Assembly (NCBI GenBank): GCA_905067555.1
Contig: CAJHIS010000002.1
Span: 3,900 to 67,899 of the forward strand
Length of the DNA stretch: 64,000 nucleotides
Direction of reading: 5' to 3'
Source: Candidatus Argoarchaeum ethanivorans
GTDB lineage: Archaea > Halobacteriota > Methanosarcinia > Methanosarcinales > EX4572-44
Shown: positions 3,966 to 59,413 of the stretch, one piece after another
Position numbering within the stretch: position 1 is the first letter of the stretch
Layout: every line of letters starts with the position of its first letter
The notes under the pieces: generated by a model
What the model was told of the DNA's origin: nothing
Databases searched by the model: none
What the model saw: the letters and a program-made list of their open reading frames with translations, nothing else
Translations under genes and position numbers: made by a program

Positions 3966-4003
3966 GAATAATAATAGAGAGCTGCTCACGTTGTGTGCGG
4001 TTC

Positions 4004-4022
4004 TGCACAACGAAGTTGTGCA
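4004..4022. repeat. Palindromic hairpin repeat, type A (tgcacaac-gaa-gttgtgca)
   Basis: Perfect 8-bp arms around a 3-nt centre, just downstream of the acyP stop. The same sequence recurs at many other intergenic sites in this window. Confidence 0.85.
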
Positions 4023-4126
4023 GTTTGAAGAATATCCCCTAAGTAGCCGCGCACGAATAACCTGAACATTTAAGGTAATATATCTCGAAACTACTTCCTG
4101 CCAACCCATTTCATCACAAAATTAAC

Positions 4127-7500: not shown

Positions 7501-8678
7501 CTGGGTCGCCTCACATGTATTTCCCGTTTAGCAGCAAACCTTTTTAACAACTTTTCAGTTCTGTGATGCTCGAAGTCTTCTTCAAGTATCATGAGCACCG
7601 GATTAGCAAAAAGTGCAGCCATGAGCGAATAGAAAATCCCGAGTGCAAGGGTCTGCCCAAGATGCTGCATCATTGGCACAGAGGAAAATGACAGCACACC
7701 AAAACCTACAATAGTGGTTAAACCTGAACCTATAATTGCTGTGCCAATCCCGTGAACAGCAGTTTCAACCGAGTCGCTCTGGTTTCGTCCCTTGTCTCGT
7801 TCCTCCTTGTATCTTGTAACCATAAACACGCCGTATTCCACTCCGAGCCCAAGGATCATTGAACTTAAACATACCGTGGCAATAGAAAGTGGTATGCCAA
7901 GCCAACCAAGTGTGCCCATTGTCCAGATAAGTCCAAGCGAAAGTGGGATAAATATTAGCAGTCCACGTGTGAAGGACTGCTCCATCACAAACAGCAACAA
8001 TAGTATAATGCACGCTGCAATCAACAATGTGGTTAAAGCATCACTTTTCAAAAGATCAAAGATAGAGACACGAAGAACAGGACTTCCGGTGGTGCCAAAC
8101 TTTACCCCGGGGGGCTTTGGAGTGTAATCAATCTTCTCATGTACGATATCAATAAAACTTTGAATCTTTACATCATCAGAACCAATATCTGCTGAGACAT
8201 ACATCAAAGTCATGCGATAATCGCGACTAAAAAACTTTTCAATCGCTGGATTCTTTTCAATCACCAGTGAGACATTATCATCTGATATCTCATCCATGGA
8301 ACGGAAAAAACTTGCAGGAGAAGTGACACTTTGAACCATGCTCTCATCCCTGAGACTCTCGTCCAGAAACAAAAGAGATTCTATTACCTGTGAATCGCGT
8401 ATGTCACGCACCGCTTTTTTGGAATTTACAGACTCGTCAATCTTTACCGCAATTACAACCGTATCCTGTCCGCCGAACTTATCATTTATCCTGTCATTCA
8501 ACTTGAAGATTGGAAGATCTCCTGGCATCTCAGAACGCACATCTGAGTTAATCGTCATATCCTTGAGCCCGCTACCAAGTAAGATCGTTATTAGAATTAT
8601 AATTACCATAAGCTCGCGCGTGTACTTTTTTTGACACCGTGCAATTGCTATTAAGACTTTATCGAAGAGTGTTGGCAT
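7497..8678 (-). CDS. RND/MMPL-superfamily exporter, half-size subunit (COG1033-type)
   Basis: 393 aa with the same architecture as 6358..7500 (a paralogous half). ATGA-type overlap with the next gene. Confidence 0.7.
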   Translation of the reverse strand: MPTLFDKVLIAIARCQKKYTRELMVIIILITILLGSGLKDMTINSDVRSEMPGDLPIFKLNDRINDKFGGQDTVVIAVKIDESVNSKKAVRDIRDSQVIESLLFLDESLRDESMVQSVTSPASFFRSMDEISDDNVSLVIEKNPAIEKFFSRDYRMTLMYVSADIGSDDVKIQSFIDIVHEKIDYTPKPPGVKFGTTGSPVLRVSIFDLLKSDALTTLLIAACIILLLLFVMEQSFTRGLLIFIPLSLGLIWTMGTLGWLGIPLSIATVCLSSMILGLGVEYGVFMVTRYKEERDKGRNQSDSVETAVHGIGTAIIGSGLTTIVGFGVLSFSSVPMMQHLGQTLALGIFYSLMAALFANPVLMILEEDFEHHRTEKLLKRFAAKREIHVRRPR

Positions 8679-11378: not shown

Positions 11379-11428
11379 TGCACAACTTCGCTTTCGCAGA
11401 GATAACTCTCGAGTGCGAAGCAGTCGAG
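11379..11428. repeat. Hairpin-repeat cluster (degenerate type A plus ctcgagtgc-gaa-gcagtcgag)
   Basis: Reads tgcacaacttcgctttcgcagagataact followed by ctcgagtgcgaagcagtcgag. It sits between convergent genes. Confidence 0.7.
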
Positions 11429-11514
11429 TGCAAGAAAATAACGTGTAATGTATTCTCACCATGTATCAAAGTTCAGCAGCAAGAGAACGAGGTGCATTTA
11501 TATTTTCTTATACG

Positions 11515-12174
11515 TTAAAAAAGCAGGAAAATATAACTGGATATAAAATAAAGTCCTGCCAGCACCAGTACAATCCCGGAAACTCTCCTGATAATCAAAC
11601 TGTATTTAATAAACGGTTTTAATGTGAAACGTGAGGTGTATGCAATCACAAGAAGGGGCAGCCCCAGGCCCAGCGAATAGATAACTAAAAGGAAGCCCCC
11701 ATAAAGTATGTCTCCTTCCACTGCTACCATTGTGAGTATCGCACCAAGTATTGGACCGATGCAGGGTGTCCAGACAATACCAAGCGAAAAACCGAGTACG
11801 AAACCCCCAGCCACTCCCCCGACATTGGTCGCAGAAAGTCTCTTGATTACACCAGTTCCTGTGTCTGGCACAAGTGCACGAATTTTTTGTTCTATCACAT
11901 CAAATATCATATATATGCCGAGAAATACAATCAGAATCCCACCGGTAATATAAAGTATAGTTTGATACTGCTGAAATACTGAGCCAAAAGCAGAAGCAAG
12001 CACACCCATCGCAGCAAATGAGATGGAAAGCCCAATAACTATTGTAATTGGTACAAATTTACTCGACTTGGTTGAGTATGCTGCAATCAGCGGAATCACC
12101 GGAAGTACGCAGGGTGATAAAACGCTTAATACACCAAAGAAGAAGGCAATAAATGGCGATGGCGCCGCCATCAT
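11515..12174 (-). CDS. ccdA: CcdA/DsbD-type thiol:disulfide electron-transfer membrane protein (cytochrome c biogenesis family)
   Basis: 219 aa, polytopic, with conserved Cys in TM1 (SPCVLPVIP) and TM4 (WTPCIGP). Confidence 0.8.
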   Translation of the reverse strand: MMAAPSPFIAFFFGVLSVLSPCVLPVIPLIAAYSTKSSKFVPITIVIGLSISFAAMGVLASAFGSVFQQYQTILYITGGILIVFLGIYMIFDVIEQKIRALVPDTGTGVIKRLSATNVGGVAGGFVLGFSLGIVWTPCIGPILGAILTMVAVEGDILYGGFLLVIYSLGLGLPLLVIAYTSRFTLKPFIKYSLIIRRVSGIVLVLAGLYFISSYIFLLF

Positions 12175-12683
12175 TTTTTATATCCCCGCTTAAGCCATAG
12201 CCAGCATATAAAGATCCCTGTTATTGTAGCTATTACGCCAAATCCAGGTGTTTGTGACTGCCCCTGCTTTTGCGATGGATCAGGCAATTTAAGTGCCTGC
12301 TGCATCTCTTTTATCAGAGTATCAGAATCATGATATCCAACCAAGCGGGAAACTTCTTCTCCCTGTAAGTTCGTGAACACAATCGTTGGGATGTATCGAA
12401 TACCGTATTGTCCTGCAAGCTGTTGTGACCCGGCAATTGGAACAAAATTTTTAGACATGTCAATTACCTGTGCATCTGTAAATACCTCCTTCTGCTTTAT
12501 GCACGCTGGACAACTGTCAGATTCAAAAAAAATCATTTCCAATTTGTTTTGAGATTCTGCAATCCGGATACCTTCCTGGTAGGTGTGCCACTCTATCACC
12601 GGCTGTGCACTCGCTACCACGTGGCACATCGTTAGGAGCAGCACTACGAGAATTAGAACAATTTTTCCTTTAATTTTAATCAT
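12171..12683 (-). CDS. Secreted thioredoxin-fold protein with PGF-CTERM archaeosortase sorting signal
   Basis: 170 aa with a signal peptide, a CxxC motif (DSCPACIKQ) and a C-terminal PGFGVIATITGIFICWLWLKRGYKK. It overlaps the ccdA start by 4 nt. Confidence 0.75.
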   Translation of the reverse strand: MIKIKGKIVLILVVLLLTMCHVVASAQPVIEWHTYQEGIRIAESQNKLEMIFFESDSCPACIKQKEVFTDAQVIDMSKNFVPIAGSQQLAGQYGIRYIPTIVFTNLQGEEVSRLVGYHDSDTLIKEMQQALKLPDPSQKQGQSQTPGFGVIATITGIFICWLWLKRGYKK

Positions 12684-12786
12684 CTTTTTGTTTGCATCGT
12701 GATGACAGTATATAAGTACTCGCTTTATCCAGTATCTCCAAAAACCTTCTTCGATTTCTTTAGTTCAGCGGCACCATTCAAGAAAC

Positions 12787-13012
12787 TGCACAACTTGATT
12801 GCTAACGCACTCGATTGCTCCGCAATCGAGAATTAAAGGTTACCGGTATTGTGTTTGCTGCACTCGATTGCTAGCGCAATCGAGAGTTGTTTTCGCACAC
12901 GGAGTGTGCGTTTCTGCACAACGAAGTTGTGCAGTTACTGGTTATTTTCCGCACAACGAAGTTGTGCAGTTACTGGTTATTTTCCGCACAACGAAGTTGT
13001 GTGGTTGTGCAG
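12787..13012. repeat. Large cluster of stacked hairpin repeats, including a 35-bp tandem repeat (about 2.6 copies)
   Basis: Type B hairpins at 12810-12830 and 12863-12884; gcacacggagtgtgc at 12895-12909; type A copies at 12915-12933, 12951-12967 and 12986-13003 with a 35-bp period (tgcacaacgaagttgtgcagttactggttattttc). Confidence 0.9.
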
Positions 13013-14215
13013 CTTCTTAAAAACCTTGAGCTTAAAATCGATTACTGCTGCCATAAAATTAACTGCTGCATCAAAAGGCGAATTGTGAATACTGAAATAA
13101 GAATGAACATCGCCATCAGAAAGCCACTTGGTGCACATATAATAATAGTGATCCGAGGTTTGCAGATACCGCCAGATTTTGATCAACTCACAGTCTCCGG
13201 TCATTTTCACATACGGCTCAAGAAGCTTTATCTCCTCAAAACACCTTCGCTGCATGTCGTTTCCAAGCCATGCACTGGTGTCACGTTCCATATCTGCCCA
13301 TGAGATCGTGGAAAAATCACCAACATCAATCTCACCGTGAGAAGGGTACATGGATACAACCTCTGAAGGCGTGTTAAAGCTTAAACCAGCAGAAAGCACT
13401 TCGTCTGGCAGGTGTCTTAAAAACTCAAATATTCCAGTGTCTGTCCATTGATGCTCTCCGAATGTCTCATAATCCATAAAGATATTAAACGTGTCTCCCT
13501 CGGCCGAAGACACCCAGTGAGCCCATTTATCAGCAGTAAGCGGATACTCGCTCCACCATCGTGCTGAGAAACGATACGCGATATCATCACTCAACCGATA
13601 GTTTCGAAACAATACAGAGAGGTCGGTCTCGGAAGCTGTATACACATAGTTTGGTGAACGATTGCTTAATGCGTGCTCTATGCCTTCAGTCAATATTGCC
13701 TTGTAACCAAGACCTGACACTGCACGAGCAATGGAATTATTATACAATACCTCGGTGTTTCTAAACACCTTTGGAGCATAACGAAACTCATCCTGCATCA
13801 GTGCATTGTGCTCGCGTATTTGCTCTTTAAACTCGTCTTTTGATTCAAACAAACCAGATAGAGAATGATAATAGGTCTCATCAATGAACTCAACACAACC
13901 GGAATCCGCCATCTGCACAAAGGTTTCAAGAAGGTCTTTGTCCCATCGCTGCAACTGGTTAATTAACGTGCCGGTGACAGAATAACTCACCTTAAACTCT
14001 TTGGAGTGTGTATCGATTAACTCCAGAATTAGTTTATTAGCAGGCCAGTAACATTTGGATGAAACCTTTTTGAGTAACGTCTTATTGATGTGGTCGTCAA
14101 AGTATCGGTCAAAAGAAGAGCGGTTATCTGGCCAGAACCACCTGAGGCGATAAGGCTGATGCACCTGAAAATAAAAACAGACAGACCGCAAAAGTTTAGA
14201 CCCGCCTCCGTGCAT
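12977..14215 (-). CDS. Glycoside hydrolase family 57 protein (alpha-amylase-like)
   Basis: GH57 signatures FQVHQPYRL, NTEVL and MDYETFGEH. The likely start is ATG 14215 (MHGGGSK...), because the track ORF start at 14332 lies inside the upstream paralog. The last codons run into the hairpin repeat cluster. Confidence 0.75.
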   Translation of the reverse strand: MHGGGSKLLRSVCFYFQVHQPYRLRWFWPDNRSSFDRYFDDHINKTLLKKVSSKCYWPANKLILELIDTHSKEFKVSYSVTGTLINQLQRWDKDLLETFVQMADSGCVEFIDETYYHSLSGLFESKDEFKEQIREHNALMQDEFRYAPKVFRNTEVLYNNSIARAVSGLGYKAILTEGIEHALSNRSPNYVYTASETDLSVLFRNYRLSDDIAYRFSARWWSEYPLTADKWAHWVSSAEGDTFNIFMDYETFGEHQWTDTGIFEFLRHLPDEVLSAGLSFNTPSEVVSMYPSHGEIDVGDFSTISWADMERDTSAWLGNDMQRRCFEEIKLLEPYVKMTGDCELIKIWRYLQTSDHYYYMCTKWLSDGDVHSYFSIHNSPFDAAVNFMAAVIDFKLKVFKKLHNHTTSLCGK

Positions 14216-23001: not shown

Positions 23002-24114
23002 ATGAGTGTAATTGAAGATTATTTTAAAAAGGTGCAAGACCAGTTAAGCTTTGATGATTTTTTGAAGCGCGTCGAGGAGAAAAGAGAAGTCATGGCAGGT
23101 CTGTGCGATGATGATACTTTATGTAGCATGGTATTACAGGAGCTCGGTGTCGACTCGATAAAAAAAATTTCAGAGATAACAGTTGATTCCGGAAAGGTTA
23201 GTATAAAAGCAAAGGTATTATCTGTATCAGAGGTTAGAGAATTCTCACGTGACAAGGGAAATGCAGGGCATGTATCAAATCTTATTGTAGGAGATGAAAC
23301 TGGCAGCATCAGGACGGTATTGTGGGACGATGCAGCGGACTTAGTAAAAACCAAAGAAATACAGAAGGATAGCAACCTGAACATATTCGGCAGTGTGCGA
23401 AATGGACAGAATGGACTTGAAATACATGTTGGGCGTGGTGGCAGAATAGACCTGCTTGACCAGGACATTAGTGCACATGTAAACAAGTGTCAGGTGGCAG
23501 ACATTGGTGAAGGAACGGCAAGCGTCAATCTCACAGCAAAAATAATTGATGCAGGCAATCTCAGGTTCTTCAAACGCAGGGATGGAAGCGAAGGAAAGGT
23601 GAGAACTGTAACACTGGGTGATCAAACCGGTAAAATAAACCTCACACTCTGGGACGAATCTGCAGAGACAATGCTTGTGGAAGACGAGGTTATTGAAATA
23701 ACAAATGCTTACTCAAAAAAGAATAATTACACCAACAACATAGAGCTGCAGTTAAGCCGTGATAGCCTGATAAACAAGACTGAAGCTCCCATAGACTATA
23801 ATGAGAAAATAACACCCATCAATGACATTGAGTTAGACAACACTTACAGCATACAGGGCTTTGTGAGCGGTATTGGTGAAATCAGAGAATTCACACGCAG
23901 GGACGGCAAAACAGGGCAGGTTGCAAACATCCACGTTTCAGACGATACAGGACGTGTAAAAGCAACACTCTGGGGAGATCAGGCTAACATAATCGATGAA
24001 GTCGATATTGGAAGTGAAGTAACGATCACCGGTGCAATGGCAAAGACAGGGCTAAACGAAGAAATCGAACTTAACCTTGACTGGAATAGTAAAATCAAAA
24101 TACTGCGAAAATAA
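23002..24114 (+). CDS. rpa: RPA-type ssDNA-binding protein with three tandem OB folds and no zinc finger (Methanosarcina RPA1-like)
   Basis: Three repeats of the pattern V..REF.R.DG..G.V....VGD.TG.I..TLWD. I took the start at MSVIEDYF (23002), inside the track ORF 22990..24114. Confidence 0.8.
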   Translation: MSVIEDYFKKVQDQLSFDDFLKRVEEKREVMAGLCDDDTLCSMVLQELGVDSIKKISEITVDSGKVSIKAKVLSVSEVREFSRDKGNAGHVSNLIVGDETGSIRTVLWDDAADLVKTKEIQKDSNLNIFGSVRNGQNGLEIHVGRGGRIDLLDQDISAHVNKCQVADIGEGTASVNLTAKIIDAGNLRFFKRRDGSEGKVRTVTLGDQTGKINLTLWDESAETMLVEDEVIEITNAYSKKNNYTNNIELQLSRDSLINKTEAPIDYNEKITPINDIELDNTYSIQGFVSGIGEIREFTRRDGKTGQVANIHVSDDTGRVKATLWGDQANIIDEVDIGSEVTITGAMAKTGLNEEIELNLDWNSKIKILRK

Positions 24115-24116
24115 CT

Positions 24117-24155
24117 CTCGACTACGAAGTAGTCGAGCTACGTAAAGTAGTCGAG
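24117..24155. repeat. Hairpin repeats, type C (ctcgactac-gaa-gtagtcgag plus a partial second copy)
   Basis: A perfect 9-bp stem with a GAA loop at 24117-24137, then ctacgtaaagtagtcgag. It lies between the rpa stop and the next gene. Confidence 0.85.
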
Positions 24156-28765: not shown

Positions 28766-28874
28766 TGCACTTGATTGCTAACACACTCGATTGCTTGCAC
28801 AACTCGATTGCTTGCACAACTCGATTGCTTGCACAACTCGATTGCTTGCACAACTCGACTACTTCGTAGTCGAG
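28766..28874. repeat. Hairpin-repeat cluster with a 17-bp tandem array (ctcgattgcttgcacaa x4) ending in a type C hairpin
   Basis: Tandem copies start at 28786, 28803, 28820 and 28837, followed by ctcgactacttcgtagtcgag at 28854-28874. The leader tgcacttgattgctaacacactcgattgc is homologous to 12787-12818. Confidence 0.9.
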
Positions 28875-29602: not shown

Positions 29603-30853
29603 TTATATGCCTGTGTGGTATCGAAGTATTGCAGCAATTCCACCAAAGGCATTTAGTAGTTGCTCTCCCTCTTCAAAGTCTGCTGATATAAACACTACTT
29701 CTGTACCCATCTGGTCGGAAATTACAGAGAGTTCTTCCACCATATCAACAGCCTGTGTTATTTTTGTTGCGCTTTTGCATTTGCTGCATGGAGGTGTTTC
29801 TATTTCCTGTTTCCCTGGTTTTCTGGCGTATGTTTTTTTCTCCTCGTGTTTGCATACATCACAGACCATGGTAATTCTTATTTTTTTCAGATCCTCTGAT
29901 AGAAGCAGTGTCTGGACTGCCCCCATTTCAAGGTTCTTTCGTACATGTTCTTCCCCGTATGTCGCAGATCCTTTATCTTTTACCAATTCTTTCATGAAGT
30001 TTTGCATGTATTGTTTTTCTTTTATAATATCGAGTCCCTCGAGGATGTCCTGTGCATTTTCAAGCAGTTCATAGAGCCCGGACTCGTCTGTGTACGATGT
30101 GTCGACAAGTCCAAGAATTTTTTGCTGCAGTTCGTGGTGAAGATATTCTCCATGTTCGAACTCCTCTTTTGTGGGAGATGGTCCCCCTATGATAATACCT
30201 TCAAGATCATGGTGATCTACTGTTAGGAATACACTATTTGCCTTATCCCCAATGCGGGTGTAAAACTCGTTGATAGCTATCAGCCGCAGTTGTTGAAAAC
30301 GGTGTGCGCTCTGCCCGCCTTTTCGTTGTTTGCCAGGAACATTTGATGTGAGGCTTGCAGATGCTTCGATGCGTTTACCATGCAAAAGCCCTATATTTGC
30401 CTCTCGCCTGTCAAGTACAAGTAATCCATAGATCCTCTTATCTTCCAGCATTTCTTCAAGCGTCTGCAGGTAGAACTCTGAATTGCAGTGATATTTATAG
30501 GAAATAAGTGGTTCTGGTGGTTCAATGATTGTTGTTTGCATATCTGTTTTGTTTGCCCCGATATCTATAGCCCCTGTAAATATGACAAAGCCGTTTTCTG
30601 GTGCTCTTTGTATATATTTAAGTCTCGAGAGTAGAGAATCAATAGCACTTTGCACGTTTCCGCGTGTGAGGCGTGATTTAATATTACTTGCCTGTCCATA
30701 TTCATCTCTGAGCTGTGATGTTACATCTGAAATCTGTTTGTCGTATGGTATGTAAAGAGAAATCAGTTCTGTACCTCTGCCGTGTTTCTCTCTTAGTTCT
30801 TCGAGTTGTTTTTTAAATTCGTATTTTTTATGAGCATCTACCATATATATCAC
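29603..30853 (-). CDS. prf1: Peptide chain release factor aRF1
   Basis: NIKS motif (ASNIKSR) and GGQ motif (KGGQSAHRF). An alternative start is ATG 30844. Confidence 0.92.
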   Translation of the reverse strand: MIYMVDAHKKYEFKKQLEELREKHGRGTELISLYIPYDKQISDVTSQLRDEYGQASNIKSRLTRGNVQSAIDSLLSRLKYIQRAPENGFVIFTGAIDIGANKTDMQTTIIEPPEPLISYKYHCNSEFYLQTLEEMLEDKRIYGLLVLDRREANIGLLHGKRIEASASLTSNVPGKQRKGGQSAHRFQQLRLIAINEFYTRIGDKANSVFLTVDHHDLEGIIIGGPSPTKEEFEHGEYLHHELQQKILGLVDTSYTDESGLYELLENAQDILEGLDIIKEKQYMQNFMKELVKDKGSATYGEEHVRKNLEMGAVQTLLLSEDLKKIRITMVCDVCKHEEKKTYARKPGKQEIETPPCSKCKSATKITQAVDMVEELSVISDQMGTEVVFISADFEEGEQLLNAFGGIAAILRYHTGI

Positions 30854-30859
30854 TGTAAA

Positions 30860-31587
30860 TTAAACAAACCTAATACATGACTTTCGGGTATCCGGATTCT
30901 GCTGCCAACTCGATTGAGACAAAACATCTACATGCCAAATTTTATAGAGTGGCAATAAGGATCGCTGATATCCATTGTGTTCAATATGCAAAGACCTTTA
31001 CCTAAGTTTATCCATCAACTCTGGCTCTTTTGGATTCATCTCTGATTCCATTCTTTTCTCATCATTGGCAATAAAAGCAACGCCCCAGGGATGGAAAATC
31101 GATTCGAATAGTGGCTACAATTCAAATTTTTCATGATCCATAATTACCTCTATTTTCAAGAGTGGCTTTTCCAGTTTCGCTTTGAGTTGTGTTATTTGTT
31201 TATGCCCTTTAATCTATTTTGGGTACAGAGGTGCCTGTGGAAGCGGTCTACTAATGGCAAAAAATCCAAGCCACTCTCGACGCTATGGTTATTTAGCATG
31301 TTCACAAATTAGGTAAACTATTCACTGGGCGTTCCCTGAAACCCGATTCATATCGCTGTTTTCTTGTGGAAATCTGTGTAATCTCGTGGTTAGTTTGAGC
31401 CAGACAAATCTAAAACCCACAACTTAATCTTGTGGGAGCTAAACATGTACCATTTTTTTATTTATACAAATATCTCTAATGGAAATCAAGGGGTCCCAAG
31501 CAACATCGTTAATAAGCATTATTTCTATTTCAGTTCTGCAAACAACAGGATGATTGGTGTTTTTGGTATGTTCTTGAGGTCGTTTAA
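30860..31587. other. Candidate replication origin (oriC) in the 730-bp non-coding region upstream of orc1/cdc6
   Basis: Four copies of A(G/T)AGTGGC (about 30948, 31110 and 31161 direct; about 31266 inverted). The mini-ORB-like element ttcttgtggaaat lies at about 31361, with related GTGG elements. An A/T-rich stretch, ccatttttttatttatacaaatat, lies at 31450-31473. The region adjoins cdc6. Confidence 0.45.
31361..31395 (+). repeat. 10-bp-phased CTNGTG motif cluster, site 3 of 4 (ttcttgtgga aatctgtgta atctcgtggt tagtt)
   Basis: Same unit family as at 4127, 15611 and 49681. It lies about 195 bp upstream of cdc6. Confidence 0.55.
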
Positions 31588-32820
31588 ATGGCTGTAGTAA
31601 ATAGTATATTCGAAAAATTTCTCTCCAATGTTCAAATCTTTGAAAACAGGGAAGTGTTGCGTCACACATATACTCCTGAACACCTGCCTCACCGTGATGT
31701 ACAGGTGGAAAGCCTTGCTGCTATTCTGGTTGCCGCTCTTCGAAAAGATACTCCGTCAAATGTTTTGATCTATGGCAAGACTGGAACCGGGAAAACAGCT
31801 GTGACAAAGTATGTGGGAATGGAGCTTGAGAAAAGCGGTGAAATTCATGGAGTCCCTTGCTATGTTATTTATATAAACTGTGAAATCGTTGACACACAGT
31901 ACAGGCTGCTAGCGCATCTTGCAAGGCACTTTGACAAAGACATCCCTATGACTGGTTGGCCAACAGATCAAGTGTATGCTGAGTTTAAAGAAGCTCTTGA
32001 TAGTGAAAAAGCAATCGTTATTGTCGTTTTGGATGAGATTGATAAACTCGTTAAAAAGGGAGATGACGTATTATATAATCTTTCCCGGATAAACGGGGAT
32101 CTGCATAAAGCTCGCATGGCTATTATTGGAATCTCCAATGATTTAAATTTCACTGAATTTTTAGATCCAAGAGTTAGAAGCTCGCTTGGAGAAGAGGAAA
32201 TAATTTTTCCCCCGTACGATGCCAAACAGATAAAAGACATCTTGAGTCAGCGCGCTGTTATGGCATTTAAGACAGGAGTTCTCGAAGAAAATGTCATACC
32301 ACTGTGTGCTGCTTTTGCCGCACAAGAGAATGGTGATGCACGCCGTGCTCTTGATCTACTTCGAGTATCTGCTGAACTGGCAGAACGTGAAAAATCATCC
32401 ATGGTACGGGAAGAGCACGTGAGGGCAGCCCATGAAAAAATAGAACTTGATAGAGTTGCTGAAGTGGTATGTACTCTTCCAACCCAGTCAAAGCTTGTGC
32501 TACTTTCAGTATTGAAATTGGTTGAGGGTGGGGGGAATCGTTTCATTACTGGTCAGGTGTACCATACATATTGCAAGATGTGCTTACAGATCCAAATGGA
32601 TGTCCTGACTCATCGTCGTATTACCGATCTGATTTCAGAACTGGATATGCTTGGCATTATCAACGCGATGGTTATAAGTAAAGGCAGATATGGTCGTACC
32701 AAGGAAATTTCTTTGAGCACCCCTCTTGAAAGTACCATGAAAACACTCTTCAAGGATTACAGGCTGCAACCATTAATCAACTTTAAAGCACCTGTGGTAG
32801 CACAGACGAAATTTTATTAA
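31588..32820 (+). CDS. cdc6: Orc1/Cdc6 replication initiator
   Basis: 410 aa with Walker A GKTGTGKT, Walker B VVLDEID and a C-terminal winged helix. Confidence 0.92.
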   Translation: MAVVNSIFEKFLSNVQIFENREVLRHTYTPEHLPHRDVQVESLAAILVAALRKDTPSNVLIYGKTGTGKTAVTKYVGMELEKSGEIHGVPCYVIYINCEIVDTQYRLLAHLARHFDKDIPMTGWPTDQVYAEFKEALDSEKAIVIVVLDEIDKLVKKGDDVLYNLSRINGDLHKARMAIIGISNDLNFTEFLDPRVRSSLGEEEIIFPPYDAKQIKDILSQRAVMAFKTGVLEENVIPLCAAFAAQENGDARRALDLLRVSAELAEREKSSMVREEHVRAAHEKIELDRVAEVVCTLPTQSKLVLLSVLKLVEGGGNRFITGQVYHTYCKMCLQIQMDVLTHRRITDLISELDMLGIINAMVISKGRYGRTKEISLSTPLESTMKTLFKDYRLQPLINFKAPVVAQTKFY

Positions 32821-32827
32821 ATAGTTA

Positions 32828-33096
32828 ATTTTTTAAAAACGTATAGGAAAGTATAAACACACTTCATTTTCTTGCTATTGAAATTCGATACATGACTTGC
32901 TGCACTCGATTGCTTCACAATCGAGAACTAAAAGCTACCTGTTATTTTCTACACAACGAAGTTGTGTAGTGCTTGCGTAATCAAGAATCAGAGGTTGTCG
33001 ATAATTCTGCGAAAGCGAAGTTATGCAGTGCTTCTTGTAATCGAGAGTTATTTCCACGCATGGATTGCGTGGTTCTGCGAAAGCGAAGTTGTGCAG
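32828..33096. repeat. Composite repeat element: T-run plus cgtataggaaagtataaac box plus at least 6 stacked hairpins
   Basis: The first ~90 bp (32828-32915) are closely similar by eye to 39754-39838. Hairpins lie at 32905-32925, 32949-32969, 32972-32985, 33007-33028, 33054-33072 and 33075-33096. It sits between convergent cdc6 and the signal peptidase gene. Confidence 0.85.
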
Positions 33097-33100
33097 TTCT

Positions 33101-33676
33101 TCATAAATTTGGTAAAGGTAGCACTGAATGAGCAAAGAGGGGTAGATATCCAATATAAGGAATGCGACAGACTGCAATTCCTACAACCCACTCCTTTTTT
33201 ACAGGTGTATGATAACAGATGTTTCCCTCCTGATCATAGTATCGATTGGTTATCTTGTTATCCCCTTTTGTAATATAGCCATCATGGGGTGCAGGAGGCC
33301 CATTCTCCCACATGGGTTCACCCTTTTTAACAAAGTACATGGCCCGGTGAATGATAGGCGTTATATCAGCACGCCCGTTTTTTTTATATAAAATGACATT
33401 TCCGTAGTTGTTAAAAGAATTGTAACCCTGCTCCTTTCCATCCATGTATGTGATAATTTCCCCACGATTCAGAGTTTTTATAAAAATAATATCTCCAACT
33501 TCCATATTATGTTCCATGCTTCCGGATTCCACTGCTACCATCGGATGATATGTTCCAAATACGACCTTGGATGCAGATGTAAACACTATAAGAATAAACA
33601 CCACAAAAATTAGATCGTTGGCAAACCTGACCCAATAATTATCACTTTTTCTAAATTTTTTTATTGCATCTTTCAT
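33101..33676 (-). CDS. Signal peptidase I, archaeal Sec11/S26B type
   Basis: 191 aa with an N-terminal TM segment and the catalytic-Ser motif ESGSMEH. Confidence 0.8.
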   Translation of the reverse strand: MKDAIKKFRKSDNYWVRFANDLIFVVFILIVFTSASKVVFGTYHPMVAVESGSMEHNMEVGDIIFIKTLNRGEIITYMDGKEQGYNSFNNYGNVILYKKNGRADITPIIHRAMYFVKKGEPMWENGPPAPHDGYITKGDNKITNRYYDQEGNICYHTPVKKEWVVGIAVCRIPYIGYLPLFAHSVLPLPNL

Positions 33677-33721
33677 TTAAAAACCTTTTGTGTTGTCGCA
33701 TAACAATAAATCACCAATCAT

Positions 33722-33833
33722 TGGCGCCGAGGTTGGGATTTGAACCCAAGCATCCCGCAAGGGACAGCAAGTCTCGAGCCTGCCGCGTTTAGACTCCTAT
33801 TTTTATTGGATTAGTCCGCTCTGCCACCTCGGC
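33722..33833 (-). tRNA. tRNA-Ser(CGA) with a 22-nt insertion in the D-loop (putative non-canonical intron) and a genomically encoded CCA
   Basis: Acceptor GCCGAGG/CCTCGGC with discriminator G followed by CCA. Anticodon arm GCAGG-CTCGAGA-CTTGC, a long variable arm, and T arm TTGGG-TTCAAAT-CCCAA. The D region reads GGCAGAGCGGAC[TAATCCAATAAAAATAGGAGTC]TAAACGC, with a CTAA duplication at both boundaries. Confidence 0.8.
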
Positions 33834-33940
33834 ACTGTGTTTTAGTGGTGCTGTGCGGAAGATTGAATTTATTTATGCTAAAATGTGCATGTTTCAATCG
33901 CTACAACTTTGTACTGGTACATTAATGTATTGCTGCTAAG

Positions 33941-35083: not shown

Positions 35084-35699
35084 AAGAACGATTGATGATG
35101 CTGTTCGGATGGAAAAAGAAAGTTCAAAACTATCTGCGCTGGATGATGATTTCTACCAGCAGTCTCGCGCATTTCTACAGAGCCTGTATGAAGAACTGAA
35201 AAACTATGAACCTGATAGTTCAAAATATAATATTATTCAGCGTGGATTAAAAAACACCAGAGATCAAATAGAGAAACTCTTTGAGCTTAGAATGTGGAAA
35301 CTACTGAAAAAATCAGCACTTAAAGGTGAAGATGATGCCACATTTGACACAACAACATTAACTGTTGAAGAACGAAAAACATACAACGAACTGAGAAAAA
35401 CAATAACCTCGCACCAGCAACTGATATTTAATATTACAGAACAGAAGAAACCTAATATAGAGCCAGTAACCGAAGACGCCGCGCAGGAACAAAACATTAA
35501 AACTGAAACGTCTGACAATAGTAAAAGGAATATAACCGATGAATACATTGTTGTCAGAGTTTTGCAGGATATTCCGCAGTTTCGAGGGATTGATATGCAT
35601 GATTATACTCTAACAAAGGACGATGTTGCTGTTTTACCAGGTATAAATGCAGATGCATTATGCAAACGTGATATTGCAGTTAAAATTAATTTAAGTTGA
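35073..35699 (+). CDS. GINS subunit (Gins51/Gins15-type)
   Basis: The start MVNRRTIDD... at 35073 overlaps the priS stop by 11 nt. The A-domain is helical (LFELRMWKLLKK) and the C-terminal B-domain reads VRVLQDIPQFRGIDMHDYTLTKDDVAVLP. priS-gins synteny is conserved. Confidence 0.75.
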   Translation: MVNRRTIDDAVRMEKESSKLSALDDDFYQQSRAFLQSLYEELKNYEPDSSKYNIIQRGLKNTRDQIEKLFELRMWKLLKKSALKGEDDATFDTTTLTVEERKTYNELRKTITSHQQLIFNITEQKKPNIEPVTEDAAQEQNIKTETSDNSKRNITDEYIVVRVLQDIPQFRGIDMHDYTLTKDDVAVLPGINADALCKRDIAVKINLS

Positions 35700-39753: not shown

Positions 39754-39905
39754 TTTTTTTAAACGTATAGGAAATTATAAACGCAACAACACTCTCTTGC
39801 TATTGAAATTCGATACATGACTTACTGTATTCGATTGCTGCATAATCGAGAGTTATTTTCACACACGAAGTGTGTGGTTCTGCACAACGAAGTTGTGCAG
39901 TTTTT
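39754..39905 (+). repeat. Composite repeat element: T7 run, cgtataggaaattataaac box, three stacked hairpins and a terminal T5 run (candidate sRNA gene or MITE-like element)
   Basis: Hairpins at 39830-39850 (type B), 39860-39876 (cacacacgaagtgtgtg) and 39881-39899 (type A), then ttttt. It is homologous to 32828-32925 and to 12863-12933. Confidence 0.8.
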
Positions 39906-43631: not shown

Positions 43632-43787
43632 TCCTATAAAACAACTGTGATAGTGTTTGTTTTAAGCCTTGATTACTGCCTAATCAAGAGTTATCTTAAT
43701 GTCGCAAGCATCAGAAAACCCAAACAGGGATTGAAACTACGAAGTATATGGCCGAGCCATTTAACACTTCCAAGCTAAAAATCAGAA

Positions 43788-43872
43788 CGCCGAGGAGGAG
43801 ATTTGAACTCCTGCGGGACGAAGTCCCACCGGTTTTCAAGACCGGCGCCGTAGGCCGCTTGGCTACCTCGGC
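43788..43872 (-). tRNA. tRNA-Ser(UGA)
   Basis: GCCGAGGTAGCCAAGCGGCCTACGGCGCCGGTCTTGAAAACCGGTGGGACTTCGTCCCGCAGGAGTTCAAATCTCCTCCTCGGCG is a class II tRNA with a long variable arm. Confidence 0.9.
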
Positions 43873-43875
43873 AGC

Positions 43876-44032
43876 TTTTTTAACGTATAGGAAAGTATAA
43901 ACGCAACCATGTTCTCTTACCTTGATTACTTCGTAATCAAGAATTGTTTTCTGTACAACGAAGTTGTACAGTGCTTCTCGCAATCGAGAATTAAAGGTTA
44001 TAGGTTATCTCTGCAAAGCGCAAGCTTTGCAG
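43876..44032. repeat. Composite repeat element (T-run, cgtataggaaagtataaac box, four hairpins)
   Basis: cttgattacttcgtaatcaag at 43921-43941; ctgtacaacgaagttgtacag at 43951-43971; a half type B hairpin at 43977-43988; ctgcaaagcgcaagctttgcag at 44011-44032. The linker aattaaaggtta matches 12831-12842. Confidence 0.85.
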
Positions 44033-49680: not shown

Positions 49681-49718
49681 CGCTTGTACCAATCTCGTGA
49701 CCTCCTGTGATTTTTTCC
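49681..49718 (+). repeat. 10-bp-phased CTNGTG motif cluster, site 4 of 4 (cgcttgtacc aatctcgtga cctcctgtga tttttt)
   Basis: Same unit family as the other three sites. It lies about 80 bp upstream of the MBL-fold gene and is followed by a T6 run. Confidence 0.55.
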
Positions 49719-50490: not shown

Positions 50491-50590
50491 CTGCACAACT
50501 TCGTTGTGCAGAGATAACTAATAACTCAAACGGTGATGTTTTAACAGTAACTATCAACAATTACACGTGTTGTGCAGAGATAACCAATAA
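50491..50590. repeat. Hairpin repeat (type A) plus a duplicated gttgtgcagagataac..aataact half-copy
   Basis: tgcacaacttcgttgtgca at 50491-50509, and a second half-copy at 50568-50590. Confidence 0.8.
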
Positions 50591-56948: not shown

Positions 56949-58262
56949 TTACAACGCCTCCTCGTTCGTGTTTTTGGATTGCTCGATTGCTACGCAATCG
57001 AGAGTTGAGTGTGTAGTGCTGCCCTCTGTTTGCGTTGTATGCAGTTGTGATAGAAGTTCATCCACTGCCTCTTTTGTTATCTTTGGTAATGCTTTTATCT
57101 CACTCACTATCAGGTGTCGATCAATCTTTGTTCCGATTATTGTATAATATCTACCGATGATTTTTGATTTTATTCTGTCTGTTACTATGTTGTGATCAAG
57201 TGCTTCTATTGCCATGTCTTTTGCTTCAACGAGAGTTATGTTTGTTAGTTCTTCGCTCAATTCTTTGTTTATGATAGCTTCCTGTGTGGTCTTACCATCG
57301 TCTATCACAGCTTTTATCCGAAGATCGTACACACCTTCGACCTTGCCGTGTTCAGTACAAACTCCTTTAGCTAGTGCCCTGTTGCATTCCGGACATCTTT
57401 TTATCAGTCCTGAGCCGTTTTGCACGTCAACGATAACACCTGTAAATTCTGCTGTTTGGATGCTTACTTCCACATCTTCTTCTATTTCAGTGATGCTTGT
57501 CGCTTTGTTCAGTTTTATACTATATCTGCCCTGCCAAACATCTGTTACTGCACTCTCTATTAGATAGGATTTGCCTTCCTCCAATGGTTCAGGAATTGTT
57601 ACTCCCTGAAATATGGTAAATCTTATAATTCCAGTTTCATCTCCAACAAGACCTACCTGAACAATAGATTCATTGTTTGCATCCCACAATTGAGTGACTT
57701 TTACCCTAAGAGTTACCCACTGCCCTTCCTGATTTATATCCTGTATGGATATGATATCGCCAGTGCCTACTTCCACATCTTCTTCTATTTCAGTGATGCC
57801 TGTCGCTTTGTTCATGTTTATCTGGTATTTGTCCTGCCAAACACCTGTTACTGCCGTTTTTACCAGGTAGGATTTGCCTTCCTCCAATGGTTCAGGAATT
57901 GTTACTCCCTGGAACATGGTAAATTTTATAATTCCAGTTTCATCTCCAACAAGACCTACCTGAACGATTGATTCATTGTTTGCTTCCCACAATTGGACAA
58001 CTTTTACCTTGAGAGTTACCCACTGCCCTTCCTGGTTTATGTCTTGTATAGCTGTGATGTCATTTGTAGAACCAGCATAGTACTGGCTTCTATCAATATC
58101 ATGTTCTTTCAGAAAATAATTAACCACGCTTCGTTTAGCTTCTCCAATTGGCACTTTAAATTCACTCGTTAGTTTCTCAAGTCGTTCCCCAGTTTCCTTT
58201 TCAGACAACTCTACTCCAAGTTGTGAAAACCGATTTACTATTTCTTGAACTGTATTTGACAT
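56949..58262 (-). CDS. rpa: RPA ssDNA-binding protein: two near-identical tandem OB folds plus a zinc-finger OB fold
   Basis: 437 aa. Residues 72-165 and 173-266 are near-identical repeats, followed by CPECNRALAKGVCTEHG. The C-terminal tail is encoded by a type B hairpin repeat. Confidence 0.85.
   Translation of the reverse strand: MSNTVQEIVNRFSQLGVELSEKETGERLEKLTSEFKVPIGEAKRSVVNYFLKEHDIDRSQYYAGSTNDITAIQDINQEGQWVTLKVKVVQLWEANNESIVQVGLVGDETGIIKFTMFQGVTIPEPLEEGKSYLVKTAVTGVWQDKYQINMNKATGITEIEEDVEVGTGDIISIQDINQEGQWVTLRVKVTQLWDANNESIVQVGLVGDETGIIRFTIFQGVTIPEPLEEGKSYLIESAVTDVWQGRYSIKLNKATSITEIEEDVEVSIQTAEFTGVIVDVQNGSGLIKRCPECNRALAKGVCTEHGKVEGVYDLRIKAVIDDGKTTQEAIINKELSEELTNITLVEAKDMAIEALDHNIVTDRIKSKIIGRYYTIIGTKIDRHLIVSEIKALPKITKEAVDELLSQLHTTQTEGSTTHSTLDCVAIEQSKNTNEEAL
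56981..57001. repeat. Type B hairpin repeat (ctcgattgctacgcaatcgag) inside the 3' end of the rpa CDS
   Basis: Read directly from the sequence. It encodes ...STLDCVAIEQS... near the C terminus. Confidence 0.85.
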
Positions 58263-59246: not shown

Positions 59247-59351
59247 CAGGTAAAGTGATGTACACCATCAATAATATATCTTGCCAGGGAATCAATTTCC
59301 ACCCACAAAGATTATTAGTAGGCAGGCATATAAGTTTGATGTCGGCACCAC

Positions 59352-59413
59352 TGCACAACTTCGTTGTGCAGAGATACAAATAACCTTTGACTCTTGATTA
59401 CGAAGCAATCGAG
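59352..59413. repeat. Hairpin repeats (type A plus a type B/C hybrid) immediately upstream of tRNA-Cys
   Basis: tgcacaacttcgttgtgca at 59352-59370 and cttgattacgaagcaatcgag at 59393-59413. Confidence 0.85.

Follow-up and report, generated by a model that had tools for sequence, protein, structure and literature searches.

The DNA analysed here, hereafter the window, is a 64-kb stretch of the genome of an uncultured ethane oxidiser in the GoM-Arc1/Argoarchaeum group, and its 92–97% identity to Ca. Argoarchaeum ethanivorans and GoM-Arc1 MAGs bears out the archaeal host assumed in a preliminary description of the sequence. It carries 15 perfect hairpins with 9-bp stems (one of them, at 32905, being perfect over 8 bp) and many degenerate copies. 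The hairpins take the form CT-N6-C, loop, G-N6-AG and occur in about 13 clusters, which are intergenic for the most part. Perfect copies of type A lie at 4003, 12914, 32949, 39880, 43951, 50491 and 59351, of type B at 12810, 12863 and 56982, of type C at 24117, 28854 and 43921, and of type D at 44011; hairpins with one mismatch are found at 11408, 12949, 12984 and 43668, and one with two mismatches at 59393. The preliminary description had listed eleven sites, all of which contain family sequence, but had given the stems as 8 bp and the type-B loop as two nucleotides; the stems are 9 bp long (CT...AG) and the loop varies between 3 and 4 nt.

The simplest site is a solitary type-A hairpin, CTGCACAAC-GAA-GTTGTGCAG, at 4003..4023 on the minus strand, where the element is reversed and the GAA loop lies on the plus strand. 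At 11379..11428 (plus strand), two modules are joined by the linker AGATAACT, a degenerate A/D hybrid (CTGCACAAC-TTCG-CTTTCGCAG) coming first and a C-like hairpin with one mismatch (11408–11428) second. A forward copy of a further module, termed M, lies at 11455..11522 (plus strand), has its core ATTTATATTTTCTTATACGT at 11496–11515 followed by TAAAAAA, and aims into the 3' end of a convergent DsbD-like gene (11515–12174). The stack at 12787..13012 (minus strand), between the 3' end of a GH57 gene and the 5' end of a thioredoxin-like gene, comprises B hairpins at 12810–12830 and 12863–12884, an E hairpin (CGCACAC-GGA-GTGTGCG) at 12894–12910 and A hairpins at 12914–12934, 12949–12969 and 12984–13004. 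The last three belong to a 35-nt tandem array of hairpin plus linker (12911–13001), and outer inverted arms, AAGAAACTGCACAAC and GTTGTGCAGCTTCTT, lie at 12780–12795 and 13004–13018. In the 51-nt gap between an RPA-like gene and an AI-2E transporter gene, a type-C hairpin (CTCGACTAC-GAA-GTAGTCGAG) is followed by a partial second copy (24117..24155, plus strand). Between the convergent ftsZ and Endo_dU genes (28766..28874, minus strand), half-arms CTCGATTGC and TTGCACAA alternate with a 17-nt period over 5.4 copies, after which comes a perfect C hairpin (28854–28874); this region had been listed among the hairpin repeats and does hold family sequence, but 28769–28858 is a tandem array of half-arms rather than of hairpins.

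Larger composites are also present. A complete element of ~258–265 nt occupies an A/T run between cdc6 and a convergent 191-aa gene (32826..33100, minus strand) and consists of an M core (32839–32858), B (32905–32925), A (32949–32969), half of a B/C (~32972–32990), A/D hybrids (~33005–33026 and ~33077–33098) and an E-like hairpin (~33055–33073). Another composite (39754..39905, minus strand) adjoins a gene (39914–40846) at its 3' end and contains an M core (39763–39782), a degenerate B (39830–39850), an E hairpin (CACACAC-GAA-GTGTGTG, 39860–39876) and an A hairpin (39880–39900). A third lies upstream of tRNA-Ser(UGA) (43787–43873, minus strand) at 43876..44032 on the same strand, with an M core (43883–43902), C-like (43921–43941) and A-like (43951–43971) hairpins, half of a B (~43976–43987) and a D hairpin (CTGCAAAGC-GCAA-GCTTTGCAG, 44011–44032). 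Upstream of purP, a solitary B/C-like hairpin with one mismatch (CTTGATTAC-TGC-CTAATCAAG, 43668..43688, no strand assigned) is a site absent from the original list. Of the repeats reported at 50491–50590, one complete hairpin and one half-site are found: a type-A hairpin with an AGATAAC linker (50491–50511) and an orphan right arm with linker (GTTGTGCAGAGATAAC, 50569–50584) make up a plus-strand site (50491..50584) between a convergent MBL-fold gene and a class-I (W/Y) tRNA-synthetase gene. A type-B hairpin at 56982..57002 (minus strand) falls within the final ~18 codons of the ORF at 56949–58262. The last stack, at 59351..59413 (plus strand), consists of an A hairpin (59351–59371), a linker and a B/C hybrid (59393–59413), and stops 4 nt short of tRNA-Cys (59418–59489).

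Family statistics were drawn from a sample of ~720 kb (0.72 Mb) made up of the window and 89 further loci, which covers about one third of each genome. The building blocks are hairpin modules of 21–22 nt, conserved asymmetric linkers and, optionally, the ~85-nt module M, which had escaped the preliminary description. Type A is CTGCACAAC with a GAA/TTC loop, type B is CTYGATTGC-N3-4, type C is CTCGACTAC or CTYGATTAC with a GAA loop, type D is CTGCAAAGC-GCAA and type E is GCACAC-GGA; stems start with CTGCA, CTCGA or CTTGA. Module M, found in 40 copies at ≤4 mismatches, ends in a near-invariant, TATA-like core of 20 nt, TGCGTTTATACTTTCCTATACGT, followed by an A-run. The canonical unit reads CAAGAAA, A(TTC), AAATAAC, B/C/E hairpins, M, TAAAAAA. 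The linkers are as conserved as had been proposed, AGTTATTT, TGCTT and AAATAAC ranking among the commonest 12-mers of the 720-kb sample. Neighbouring A hairpins share the same loop polarity in 21 of 21 cases, and where an A stands next to a C the loop polarity is reversed in 16 of 17, so that the hairpin types cluster in fixed alternating polarity with conserved linkers, as the REP types of a BIME do. Whole units can also be repeated in tandem, with periods of 81 nt (L076) and 86 nt (L071). The split A arms at 12787–13012 had raised the idea that new modules insert into hairpin loops; it was rejected because this is the only left-then-right pair among 41 left and 41 right orphan arms.

Base pairing in the stems is maintained, as judged from covariation, which the preliminary description had likewise missed. 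At position 3 of the B/C stem, T·A (45) and C·G (63) pairs stand against 11 mismatches; at position 6 there are 98 and 15 paired copies and 6 mismatches, and at position 8, 37 and 73 paired copies and 9 mismatches. These counts include orthologous copies and are thus non-independent, and amplification from few master copies may contribute to the pattern alongside continuing selection. A bias towards G·U wobbles was considered as a signature of RNA and dropped: C·A mismatches are as common as T·G ones (5 and 6), and the comparison is uninformative because the hairpins sit in both orientations. The stack at 12787–13012 folds with z = -6.9 as single-stranded DNA, and folding as RNA gave z = -3.7. 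The C-GAA-G triloop is a classic extra-stable DNA mini-hairpin motif. The stability of the DNA loops d(GCGAAGC) and d(cGNAg) has been described (PMC13037366; PMC3201870).

Neither the abundance nor the dispersal of the motifs is a matter of chance or confined to the window. Allowing ≤3 mismatches, the type-A 21-mer has 14 matches in the window against 0.00 in shuffled sequence (n = 100). Type B has 6 against 0.02 and the M core 4 against 0.00; by our own calculation, ~0.06 perfect CT..AG 9-bp hairpins with a 3–5 nt loop would be expected in 64 kb, where 15 are observed. At least 89 further stretches of public genomes contain the exact type-A 21-mer and, among the matches listed, all carriers are GoM-Arc1/Ca. 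Argoarchaeum-type assemblies, apart from three contigs with an Eth-SRB1 bin assignment, of which one or more are archaeal. The 720-kb sample contains 244 perfect CT..AG hairpins of about 9 stem types, and a 21-kb locus picked solely by its cdc6 gene (L103) contains 11. Extrapolating from the densities in the window and in this locus, a ~2-Mb genome would hold hundreds of modules. The family is confined to a genus-level clade, a narrowness that the first reading had not recognised: hairpins were absent across 58 kb from Ca. Ethanoperedens thermophilum and a relative of 82% identity (L105–L107) and across 21 kb of relatives with 77–85% PurP identity, and the type-A 21-mer is missing from ~79 kb of remoter relatives, the closed genome of Ca. 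Ethanoperedens thermophilum among them. The impression that no described family has this consensus holds, since literature searches found no description and Rfam, at gathering thresholds and at E ≤ 0.5, returned tRNAs and one weak lone CRISPR-repeat match unrelated to the hairpins. A viral origin was rejected, IMG/VR giving 0 matches.

The comparison with relatives shows that these repeats move. The 258-nt element downstream of cdc6, with M and six hairpins, is present in the window and in one close relative (L101), and is missing with intact flanks (TTAATTTTTCATAAATT) from five others (L002, L102, L103, L104 and the 82% outgroup L105). Its absence from relatives that include an outgroup identifies it as a polarised gain by insertion. 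It is the only insertion that is cleanly polarised; the other differences could reflect deletion or recombination. An origin-of-replication element, suggested by the copy that follows cdc6, was rejected, as the five relatives lack it there. Elsewhere, clusters vary in module content among genomes with 92–97% identity, and at four window sites the orthologous clusters are made up of different modules. At 11379..11428 in L034 and at 12787..13012 in the Ca. Argoarchaeum locus L041 the modules are others, at 28766..28874 GoM-Arc1-GOS (L030) has an M-like fragment instead, and relatives also differ at 24117..24155, where one has an extra 1.5-kb gene (L009). The site of the solitary hairpin at 43668..43688 is occupied by a stack of >270 nt in L092, a close metagenomic relative, and at 50491..50584 another relative has a 3.2-kb extra gene (L078). 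Outside the window, L025 and L045 differ in the presence of a 95-nt unit of M and A, and L075 and L028 by an 85-nt indel with CTGCA(C/G) at its borders. Sequences and linkers conserved across loci would not be expected of independently evolved terminators, and together with the cdc6 insertion and the module turnover at orthologous sites they uphold the earlier argument for propagation.

Units are flanked on both sides by A-rich heptamers, the left and right of which agree at 4.74 positions against 4.38 in shuffled pairs (p ~0.014, n = 19), and the clean empty site is compatible with a target duplication of 0–5 nt of A-run. Retroposition, which an A-tail and target duplication might suggest, was judged unsupported: with the promoter sitting at the wrong end, a unit's own transcript would fail to copy it. 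Terminal inverted repeats are absent, the unit ends CAAGAAACTGCACAAC and CCTATACGTTAAAAAA not being inverted repeats of each other. A consensus-based phmmer search for Y1 transposases over all ORFs of the window and the 89 loci, i.e., about one third of each genome, gave five matches, two of them IS605-type copies with TnpB and three decayed IS200-like copies. None of the Y1 matches in the 0.72-Mb sample is flanked on both sides by family hairpins, as a RAYT gene would be. Two of the decayed IS200-like copies lie 40–190 nt from an A hairpin and were considered as RAYT candidates; they were rejected as non-syntenic and as having unrelated end hairpins of their own. The left- and right-end hairpins of the IS copies in L026, L059, L051 and L053 are unlike types A–E, and an all-against-all search of the sample for multi-copy segments of 0.3–3.5 kb found no parent IS.

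The proposal that the hairpins sit mainly at gene 3' ends or between convergent genes holds as a trend in density, which is 1.4/kb in convergent, 1.06/kb in tandem and 0.37/kb in divergent intergenic regions; it is not absolute, as the genes on either side of 59351–59413 are divergent. Which way a hairpin points does not depend on the direction of transcription: the sense strand of tandem intergenic regions carries GAA in 32 and TTC in 47 cases, a polarity on which intrinsic-terminator-type hairpins were rejected. A palindromic hairpin folds on either strand, so the absent orientation bias is compatible with a role at the RNA level. Module M is the only candidate promoter of tRNA-Ser in the window: within 43876..44032, its TTTATAC ends 22 nt ahead of the mature 5' end and is the sole TATA-like sequence upstream of the gene. 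In L023, L033 and L066, M lies 25–45 nt ahead of start codons. With a crude gene caller, 14 of 36 M copies are co-oriented with the next gene and 22 aim into a convergent gene, and M was on this count rejected as a genuine promoter family for downstream genes; the native tRNA promoters of the clade look unlike it. Between the stack at 59351..59413 and tRNA-Cys there is no TATA-like sequence, which probably places the stack within the 5' leader of the tRNA. Hairpins lie within probable leaders of tRNA-Cys (window), tRNA-Leu (L001) and tRNA-Met (L025), a location that had been overlooked.

The repeats are thus a mosaic mobile family of small modular DNA repeats in an archaeal host, for which the earlier label 'REP/BIME-like' is valid solely as an analogy. 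What they share with the REP/BIME elements of E. coli and Pseudomonas are ~21-nt palindromes in high copy number, almost all extragenic and with a bias towards the 3' ends of genes, mosaics in which hairpins of several types are joined by conserved linkers and keep a fixed polarity towards one another (A–C opposite in 16 of 17), a species- or genus-specific consensus and fast turnover between close relatives. They also match REPs in being extragenic palindromes of 20–40 nt with >100 copies per genome, a per-genome number that is an extrapolation here. Unlike REP/BIME elements, they have an archaeal host and perfect stems of higher AT content, and many of their units carry the promoter-like M. 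In REPs, one end of the palindrome bears a conserved tetranucleotide, GTAG or CGTC (PMC3733652); here this terminal tag is missing, GTAG being found only next to the loop of type C. No hairpin-flanked RAYT gene was found in 0.72 Mb, and a 2018 survey assigned Archaea only the ordinary IS200 subclass of Y1 transposases (PMC6006769).

Other known systems fit in part. The BOX element of Streptococcus pneumoniae is organised as boxA–boxB(n)–boxC, and Correia elements carry terminal inverted repeats of 26 bp together with a TA duplication. The family resembles BOX and the Correia/NEMIS elements of Neisseria in placing a variable number of hairpin modules between conserved end modules, in being non-coding, in its capacity to create promoters or alter the expression of neighbours, and in possible co-transcription with them. 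It has no known sequence similarity to either, its promoter is an archaeal TATA box, and the terminal inverted repeats and TA duplication of Correia are not seen. Archaeal MITEs (Sulfolobus SM1–SM4 and haloarchaeal) and IS200/IS605-derived palindrome-associated elements are likewise small, non-autonomous, intergenic and polymorphic in presence, and IS200/IS605 copies reside in these same genomes. Unlike in MITEs, no terminal inverted repeats, clear fixed-length target duplication or related autonomous IS were found, and the subterminal hairpins of the resident IS605 copies (e.g., CCCCATGC..GTGGGG) are unrelated to A–E. Finally, RepRanger reported stable intergenic hairpins without a U-tail as widespread in archaea, counting any stable intergenic palindrome in six archaeal genomes that include no Methanosarcinales or GoM-Arc1 (PMC12306157); those 'REPs', unlike the present family, have no defined propagating sequence family, grammar or insertion polymorphism (PMC12306157).

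Could the repeats instead be RNA elements selected by the host, i.e., terminators, 3'-UTR stabilisers against 3'-to-5' decay or insulators, with M and hairpins forming a 'terminator plus promoter' cassette and copy number resulting from selection? Density does peak where gene 3' ends meet (1.4 vs. 1.06 vs. 0.37/kb), M is flanked by T-runs (TTTTTTA on the incoming gene's strand), the linkers are U-rich in one orientation (GUUAUUUU, UUUCUU), hairpins lie in the probable tRNA-Cys, tRNA-Leu and tRNA-Met leaders, the stems covary, and bacterial REPs are known to stabilise mRNA 3' ends (PMC3733652). Such a function is nevertheless unlikely, considering that orientation shows no preference relative to transcription (32 vs. 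47), that the U-rich context is confined to one strand and that 22 of 36 M copies aim into a convergent gene. The 20-nt M core is, moreover, conserved far beyond the needs of a promoter, close relatives that lack the cdc6 element or have unlike stacks at the same site are otherwise unchanged, and whole sister lineages do without the family. It is still less probable that the stacks are sRNA genes, in which M read on the reverse strand (AGGAAAG-TATAAAC, a purine-rich BRE and then TATA) would drive structured sRNAs ending at the UUUCUU run. BRE-like purines can be read upstream of the reverse-strand TATA box, the stacks fold well and T-rich runs follow the last hairpin in this orientation, but M is lacking in 7 of the 11 window clusters first listed, stack composition varies strongly between orthologs, no Rfam family matches, and the forward-strand TATA is closer to the archaeal consensus and demonstrably fits tRNA-Ser.

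IHF and gyrase bind bacterial BIMEs, and this could be taken to favour double-stranded sites for a dimeric DNA-binding protein (a global regulator, a nucleoid-associated or a restriction-modification-like protein), the half-site symmetry of which would mimic covariation. The perfect 9-3-9 palindromes have an operator-like geometry, and the stem feet read as halves of CTGCAG and CTCGAG palindromes. We regard this as very improbable given that at least five stem sequences share the geometry with loops of 3–5 nt, that the hairpins lie mainly away from promoters, and that half-arm tandem arrays, presence/absence behaviour and copies inside coding 3' ends occur. Degenerate CRISPR arrays or an assembly artefact, to which the regular spacings of 35 nt (12911–13001) and 17 nt (28769–28858) and the breaking of related assemblies' contigs at the repeats (L091, L101) might point, have a negligible probability: unique spacers are absent, the 'spacers' being the conserved linkers themselves, the hairpins match no CRISPR family, and the artefact is effectively refuted by the same sequences in independent NCBI, ENA, JGI and Logan assemblies.

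We therefore favour, with a probability of about 0.72, a lineage-specific family of small non-autonomous mosaic repeats that is a functional analogue of bacterial REP/BIME or BOX-type elements. Whole units insert into A/T runs at gene-poor spots, mostly just beyond gene 3' ends, and then grow, shrink and reshuffle locally, as tandem arrays and as indels bounded by short repeats (CTGCA); stem pairing is kept through compensatory changes. A trans-acting enzyme may recognise the hairpin extruded as single-stranded DNA, the likeliest candidate being an HUH/Y1 transposase of the IS200/IS605 type encoded in these genomes. Effects on the host would be by-products: M may supply a TATA-box promoter (for tRNA-Ser in the window and some protein genes in relatives), the T/A run of M and the hairpins may occupy terminator positions, and insertions may also reshape protein C-termini and tRNA leaders. 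A further-reaching proposal, possible but doubtful, is that the repeats are the visible half of an archaeal non-RAYT system of hairpin transposition, in which an enzyme (a diverged Y1/HUH or one of another class) would recognise the extra-stable C-GAA-G DNA hairpins and paste units into the oligo-T/A runs acting as terminators in archaea, M being a portable archaeal promoter already recruited for a tRNA gene. If true, the family would represent a new class of mobile element in archaea, one that brings its own regulatory cargo.

To our knowledge, REP/BIME-type elements and their domesticated transposases count as an essentially bacterial phenomenon. Finding a clear analogue with high copy number and recent activity in an archaeon means that this lifestyle exists there, and the absence of the known tags and of an identified RAYT raises the question of what mobilises the family. 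In practical terms, contigs end at the repeats, which thus break short-read assemblies, and the family consensus offers a precise marker for assigning contigs to the genus that already flags archaeal DNA misbinned in a Desulfobacteraceae MAG. With a TATA-type promoter and copies at tRNA leaders, gene 3' ends and synteny breakpoints, the family probably shapes gene expression and genome rearrangement in this uncultured, slow-growing ethane oxidiser.

Palindromes are densely stacked at 12600–13200, as read from the window sequence, and a mechanical scan across the window returned 20 perfect hairpins whose stems reach 8 bp or more. Sixteen of these form a single family with the pattern CT-N6-C / loop / G-N6-AG, 15 being perfect over 9 bp and the one at 32905 over 8 bp. 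Type A hairpins (CTGCACAAC-GAA or -TTC) appear in the scan at 4003, 12914, 39880, 50491, and 59351, with compensated variants at 32949 (CTACACAAC) and 43951 (CTGTACAAC). Type B (CTCGATTGC, loop of 3–4 nt) is found at 12810, 12863, 32905, and 56982, type C (CTCGACTAC or CTTGATTAC) at 24117, 28854, and 43921 and, with 8 perfect pairs, at 43668, and type D (CTGCAAAGC-GCAA) at 44011, while the shorter type E (GCACAC-GGA-GTGTGC) lies at 12894 and 39860. Allowing up to 3 mismatches, type A occurs 14 times in the window against 0.00 expected from shuffle controls; for type B the observed and expected values are 6 and 0.02. Two clusters form tandem arrays, one of 35 nt × 2.6 (12911–13001, hairpin A plus linker) and one of 17 nt × 5.4 composed of alternating half-arms (28769–28858). 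All eleven sites named in the preliminary description are real, with some of its details corrected, and its observation of recurrent, stacked palindromes is confirmed as a whole.

Covariation was assessed at three variable stem positions in 119 type B and C hairpins. Position 3 is paired as T·A in 45 and C·G in 63 copies (11 mismatched), position 6 is paired in 98 and 15 copies (6 mismatched), and position 8 in 37 and 73 (9 mismatched). The variable positions are thus overwhelmingly paired, where about half would be expected to mismatch under independence, so that at least four compensatory double changes separate the perfect subtypes; to judge from these stem sequences, the hairpin structure is in all appearance maintained. 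Mismatches of the C·A and T·G kinds have equal frequencies; with elements lying in either orientation, this gives no discrimination between selection at the DNA and RNA levels. Folded as single-stranded DNA, the stack at 12780–13020 reaches −57.4 kcal/mol (z = −6.9), and the element at 32826–33104 folded as RNA gives z = −3.7. The d(cGNAg) triloop forms the loop of an “extraordinarily stable” DNA mini-hairpin (PMC13037366; PMC3201870). The dominant loop context of the family, C-GAA-G, matches this motif and is suggestive, as opposed to proof, of single-stranded DNA or cruciform formation.

The modules are arranged by rule. The commonest 12-mers in the pooled sample, which comprises the window and 89 loci (720 kb), are hairpin A and its asymmetric flanks; adjacent A–A modules share loop polarity in 21 of 21 cases, and adjacent A–C modules have opposite polarity in 16 of 17. 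Many units also contain M, a module of about 85 nt (approximately CATGTATCGAATTTCAGTAGCAAGAGAACGAGGTGC-GTTTATACTTTCCTATACGT-TAAAAAA) that the preliminary description had overlooked. With up to 4 mismatches, M is present in 40 copies in the pooled sample and four in the window (11496, +; 32839, −; 39763, −; 43883, −), and its core of 20–23 nt is conserved at more than 90% per column, far above the surrounding sequence. The canonical unit reads CAAGAAA – A(TTC) – AAATAAC – [B/C/E] – M – TAAAAAA, and whole units of 81 and 86 nt form head-to-tail arrays in the related loci L076 and L071. A further hairpin-like motif (AACCACGAGATT...AATCTCGTGGTT) recurs beside M modules or type A hairpins at several loci (L073 ~7870–7910; L071 ~2040–2100; L051 7085–7130). 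A separate dispersed repeat at 55495–55666 shows about 90% identity over 80–140 nt to four unrelated loci (L007, L021, L062, and L070).

Exact matching against 185,579 species-representative genomes located the type A 21-mer in at least 89 stretches, bearing out the proposal of a dispersed family. The matches listed derive from Ca. Argoarchaeum ethanivorans Eth-Arch1, “Ca. Ethanoperedens thermophilum” GoM-Arc1-LC-WB58, and GoM-Arc1-GOS, the exceptions being three small contigs binned as Desulfobacteraceae Eth-SRB1 (L038, L077, and L078; RPGP01) that bear the archaeal repeat. DNA identity between the window and matching assemblies is 92–97%, and the window itself matches a metagenome contig in ENA. 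Since L078 is 97% identical to window positions 48462–51387, at least that Eth-SRB1 contig represents misbinned archaeal DNA. In the pooled 720 kb, 244 perfect CT..AG 9-bp hairpins use only about nine stem sequences (A 122, B 66, D 15, and C-like 33). A 21-kb locus chosen solely for encoding Cdc6 (L103; 96% Cdc6 identity, GC 41%) contains 11 family hairpins and one M core. None were found in the 82%-identity relative L105 (GC 48%), in a region of the closed Ca. Ethanoperedens thermophilum genome (L106; GC 47%), in L107, or in five loci with PurP 77–85% identical, and the family is absent from IMG/VR viral contigs. These counts and the absence from distant relatives indicate a family that is abundant and confined to a genus-level clade.

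Comparison of related genomes for presence and absence, as the preliminary description had proposed, revealed a polymorphic site polarized as a gain. Downstream of cdc6 (31588–32820, Pfam), an element of ~258 nt at 32826–33100, consisting of M and six hairpins, is shared with L101 (Cdc6 98% identical), and the site is empty in L002, L102, L103, and L104 (TTAATTTTT|CATAAATT) with otherwise collinear flanks. Because the 82% outgroup L105 likewise lacks the element, as do these several ingroup genomes, it was gained. The insertion point is an A/T run directly after the cdc6 stop codon, and the junction allows a duplication of 0–5 nt. Elsewhere, a 95-nt M + A unit distinguishes L025 from L045, and an 85-nt B/A/E indel with ends CTGCA(C/G) separates two nearly identical Argoarchaeum contigs. 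The clusters at 11379, 12787, 24117, and 28766 have other module sets at the orthologous sites of relatives, with flanks 92–97% identical, and the single hairpin at 43668 corresponds to a stack of more than 270 nt in a close metagenomic relative. In the 19 units whose ends could be defined, the octamers to the left and right are rich in A and more alike than shuffled pairs (p ~0.014); either a short duplication of the target or a bias toward A-runs could account for this. In relatives, two of the hairpin sites also coincide exactly with extra genes, one for a 427-aa beta-helix/dockerin-like protein (L009 3377–4892, at window 24113–24144) and one for a 786-aa protein (L078 2070–5281, at window 50527–50643), and synteny of L103 with the window breaks at a hairpin stack after xseB (L103 15478–15670); both observations would fit a role of the repeats as recombination hotspots. 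Around cdc6, genes for Cdc6/Orc1, primase small subunit, and GINS are clustered (30853–31588 and 31588–35699), with a 735-nt gap ahead of cdc6 that is a candidate origin of replication.

The neighbors of the repeats are ordinary housekeeping genes (GH57, thioredoxin-like, RPA-like, FtsZ, Endo_dU, Cdc6, PurP, FKBP, class-I tRNA synthetase, and an AIR-synthase-related protein). Type A density per kb is 1.4 in convergent, 1.06 in tandem, and 0.37 in divergent gaps, and loop polarity relative to transcription in tandem gaps (32 vs. 47) shows no meaningful bias. The copies at 56982 and 12984 fall within the final codons of ORFs. Three tRNA genes (tRNA-Cys in the window, tRNA-Leu in L001, and tRNA-Met in L025) have a stack directly against their 5′ ends that leaves no space for a promoter in between, so that these stacks would have to be transcribed as leader. 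M looks promoter-like. At 43883–43902, its TTTATAC stops 22 nt short of the mature tRNA-Ser(UGA) 5′ end, upstream of which there is no other TATA-like sequence; this TTTATAC-to-tRNA spacing is that expected of an archaeal TATA box. M also lies 25–45 nt ahead of protein-gene start codons in L023, L033, and L066. As the native tRNA promoters of the clade are unlike M, the tRNA-Ser promoter is either element-borne or the source of M. Under a rough gene model built on ORFs, 22 of the 36 copies of M, including those at 11496 and 32839 in the window, run toward and into the 3′ end of a gene convergent with them, which argues that promoter supply is a side effect rather than the reason for the copies, and that M is not mainly used as a promoter.

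Several other features were observed. A lone CRISPR direct-repeat-like sequence with no surrounding array lies between purP and tRNA-Ser at 43701–43737 (−) (Rfam CRISPR-DR60, 30.6 bits, E = 0.11, under the gathering score). A conserved stretch at ~33745–33885 (−) and L103 11850–12090 resembles tRNA-Ser(CGA) by eye, with a long variable arm, T-arm TTGGGTTCAAATCCCAA, and acceptor GCCGAGG/CCTCGGC with GCCA after it; its D-arm region is longer by about 25 nt, possibly a non-canonical intron, and neither ARAGORN, with or without the intron option, nor Rfam calls it. A type A hairpin in L103 is flanked on both sides by copies of a 29-nt segment from the 3′ end of this stretch. The ORF at 56949–58262, with a weak OB-fold/SSB-like match, contains a 303-nt tandem duplication (57461–58049; 1.9 copies, 88% identity). 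At 62000–64000, GC falls to 31% and several AT-rich tandem repeats occur, among them a 13-nt unit TTTATAGTGTTTA × 3.2 (63223–63264) and a 28-nt unit × 2.7 (63777–63855).

Among known systems, REP/BIME elements share with the family their small size, palindromes, high copy number, extragenic placement, 3′-end bias, fixed-polarity mosaics with linkers, and clade specificity, and in functional terms the family behaves like them. However, the defining GTAG/CGTC tag of REPs is missing, and no RAYT for the family was found in the sample, which covers about a third of each genome. BOX and Correia elements are similar in modularity and promoter cargo. MITEs differ in that the family has no terminal inverted repeats and no clear-cut target duplication, and neither a parent IS nor a long multi-copy element that could serve as one was found in the sample. 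Unique spacers, as in CRISPR, are missing from the arrays, and the lack of orientation dependence sets the family apart from terminators. The earlier interpretation as a propagating element is supported. Rfam holds no family matching the hairpins, the Ethanoperedens genome paper does not mention palindromic repeats, and searches of the Argoarchaeum and archaeal-REP literature found no description, in agreement with the initial statement that no described family with this consensus was known; the archaeal “REPs” of RepRanger are generic hairpin counts in other taxa.

As to the mobilizing enzyme, an HUH/Y1 protein acting on single-stranded hairpins is the leading guess, albeit a doubtful one. 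A phmmer search of all ORFs in the sample (only about a third of each genome) with a Y1-transposase consensus gave five matches, none of them bracketed by family hairpins and none in the 64-kb window. Two are standard IS605-type tnpA–tnpB units, and the end hairpins of these resident IS200/IS605 elements (e.g., CCCCATGC…GTGGGG) are unlike and unrelated to the family. The other three belong to a different IS200-like element whose copies have decayed, with TGA in frame at the conserved Trp codon (L053 3083–3601, −; L051 7278–7500, +, with a 1-nt deletion causing a frameshift; L064 543–743, −); those in L051 and L053 have a similarly oriented type A hairpin 40–190 nt upstream. In a published survey, archaeal Y1 proteins were of the ordinary IS200 type only, with no RAYT classes (PMC6006769).

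The best explanation, to which we assign a probability of about 0.7, is that the repeats form a non-autonomous mosaic family, restricted to one genus and active in recent times, in which the hairpin structure is maintained. Such a family would insert at A/T runs close to gene ends, and inserted units would evolve on by slippage and recombination, incidentally giving host genes a TATA promoter, T-runs, or leader or C-terminal sequence.
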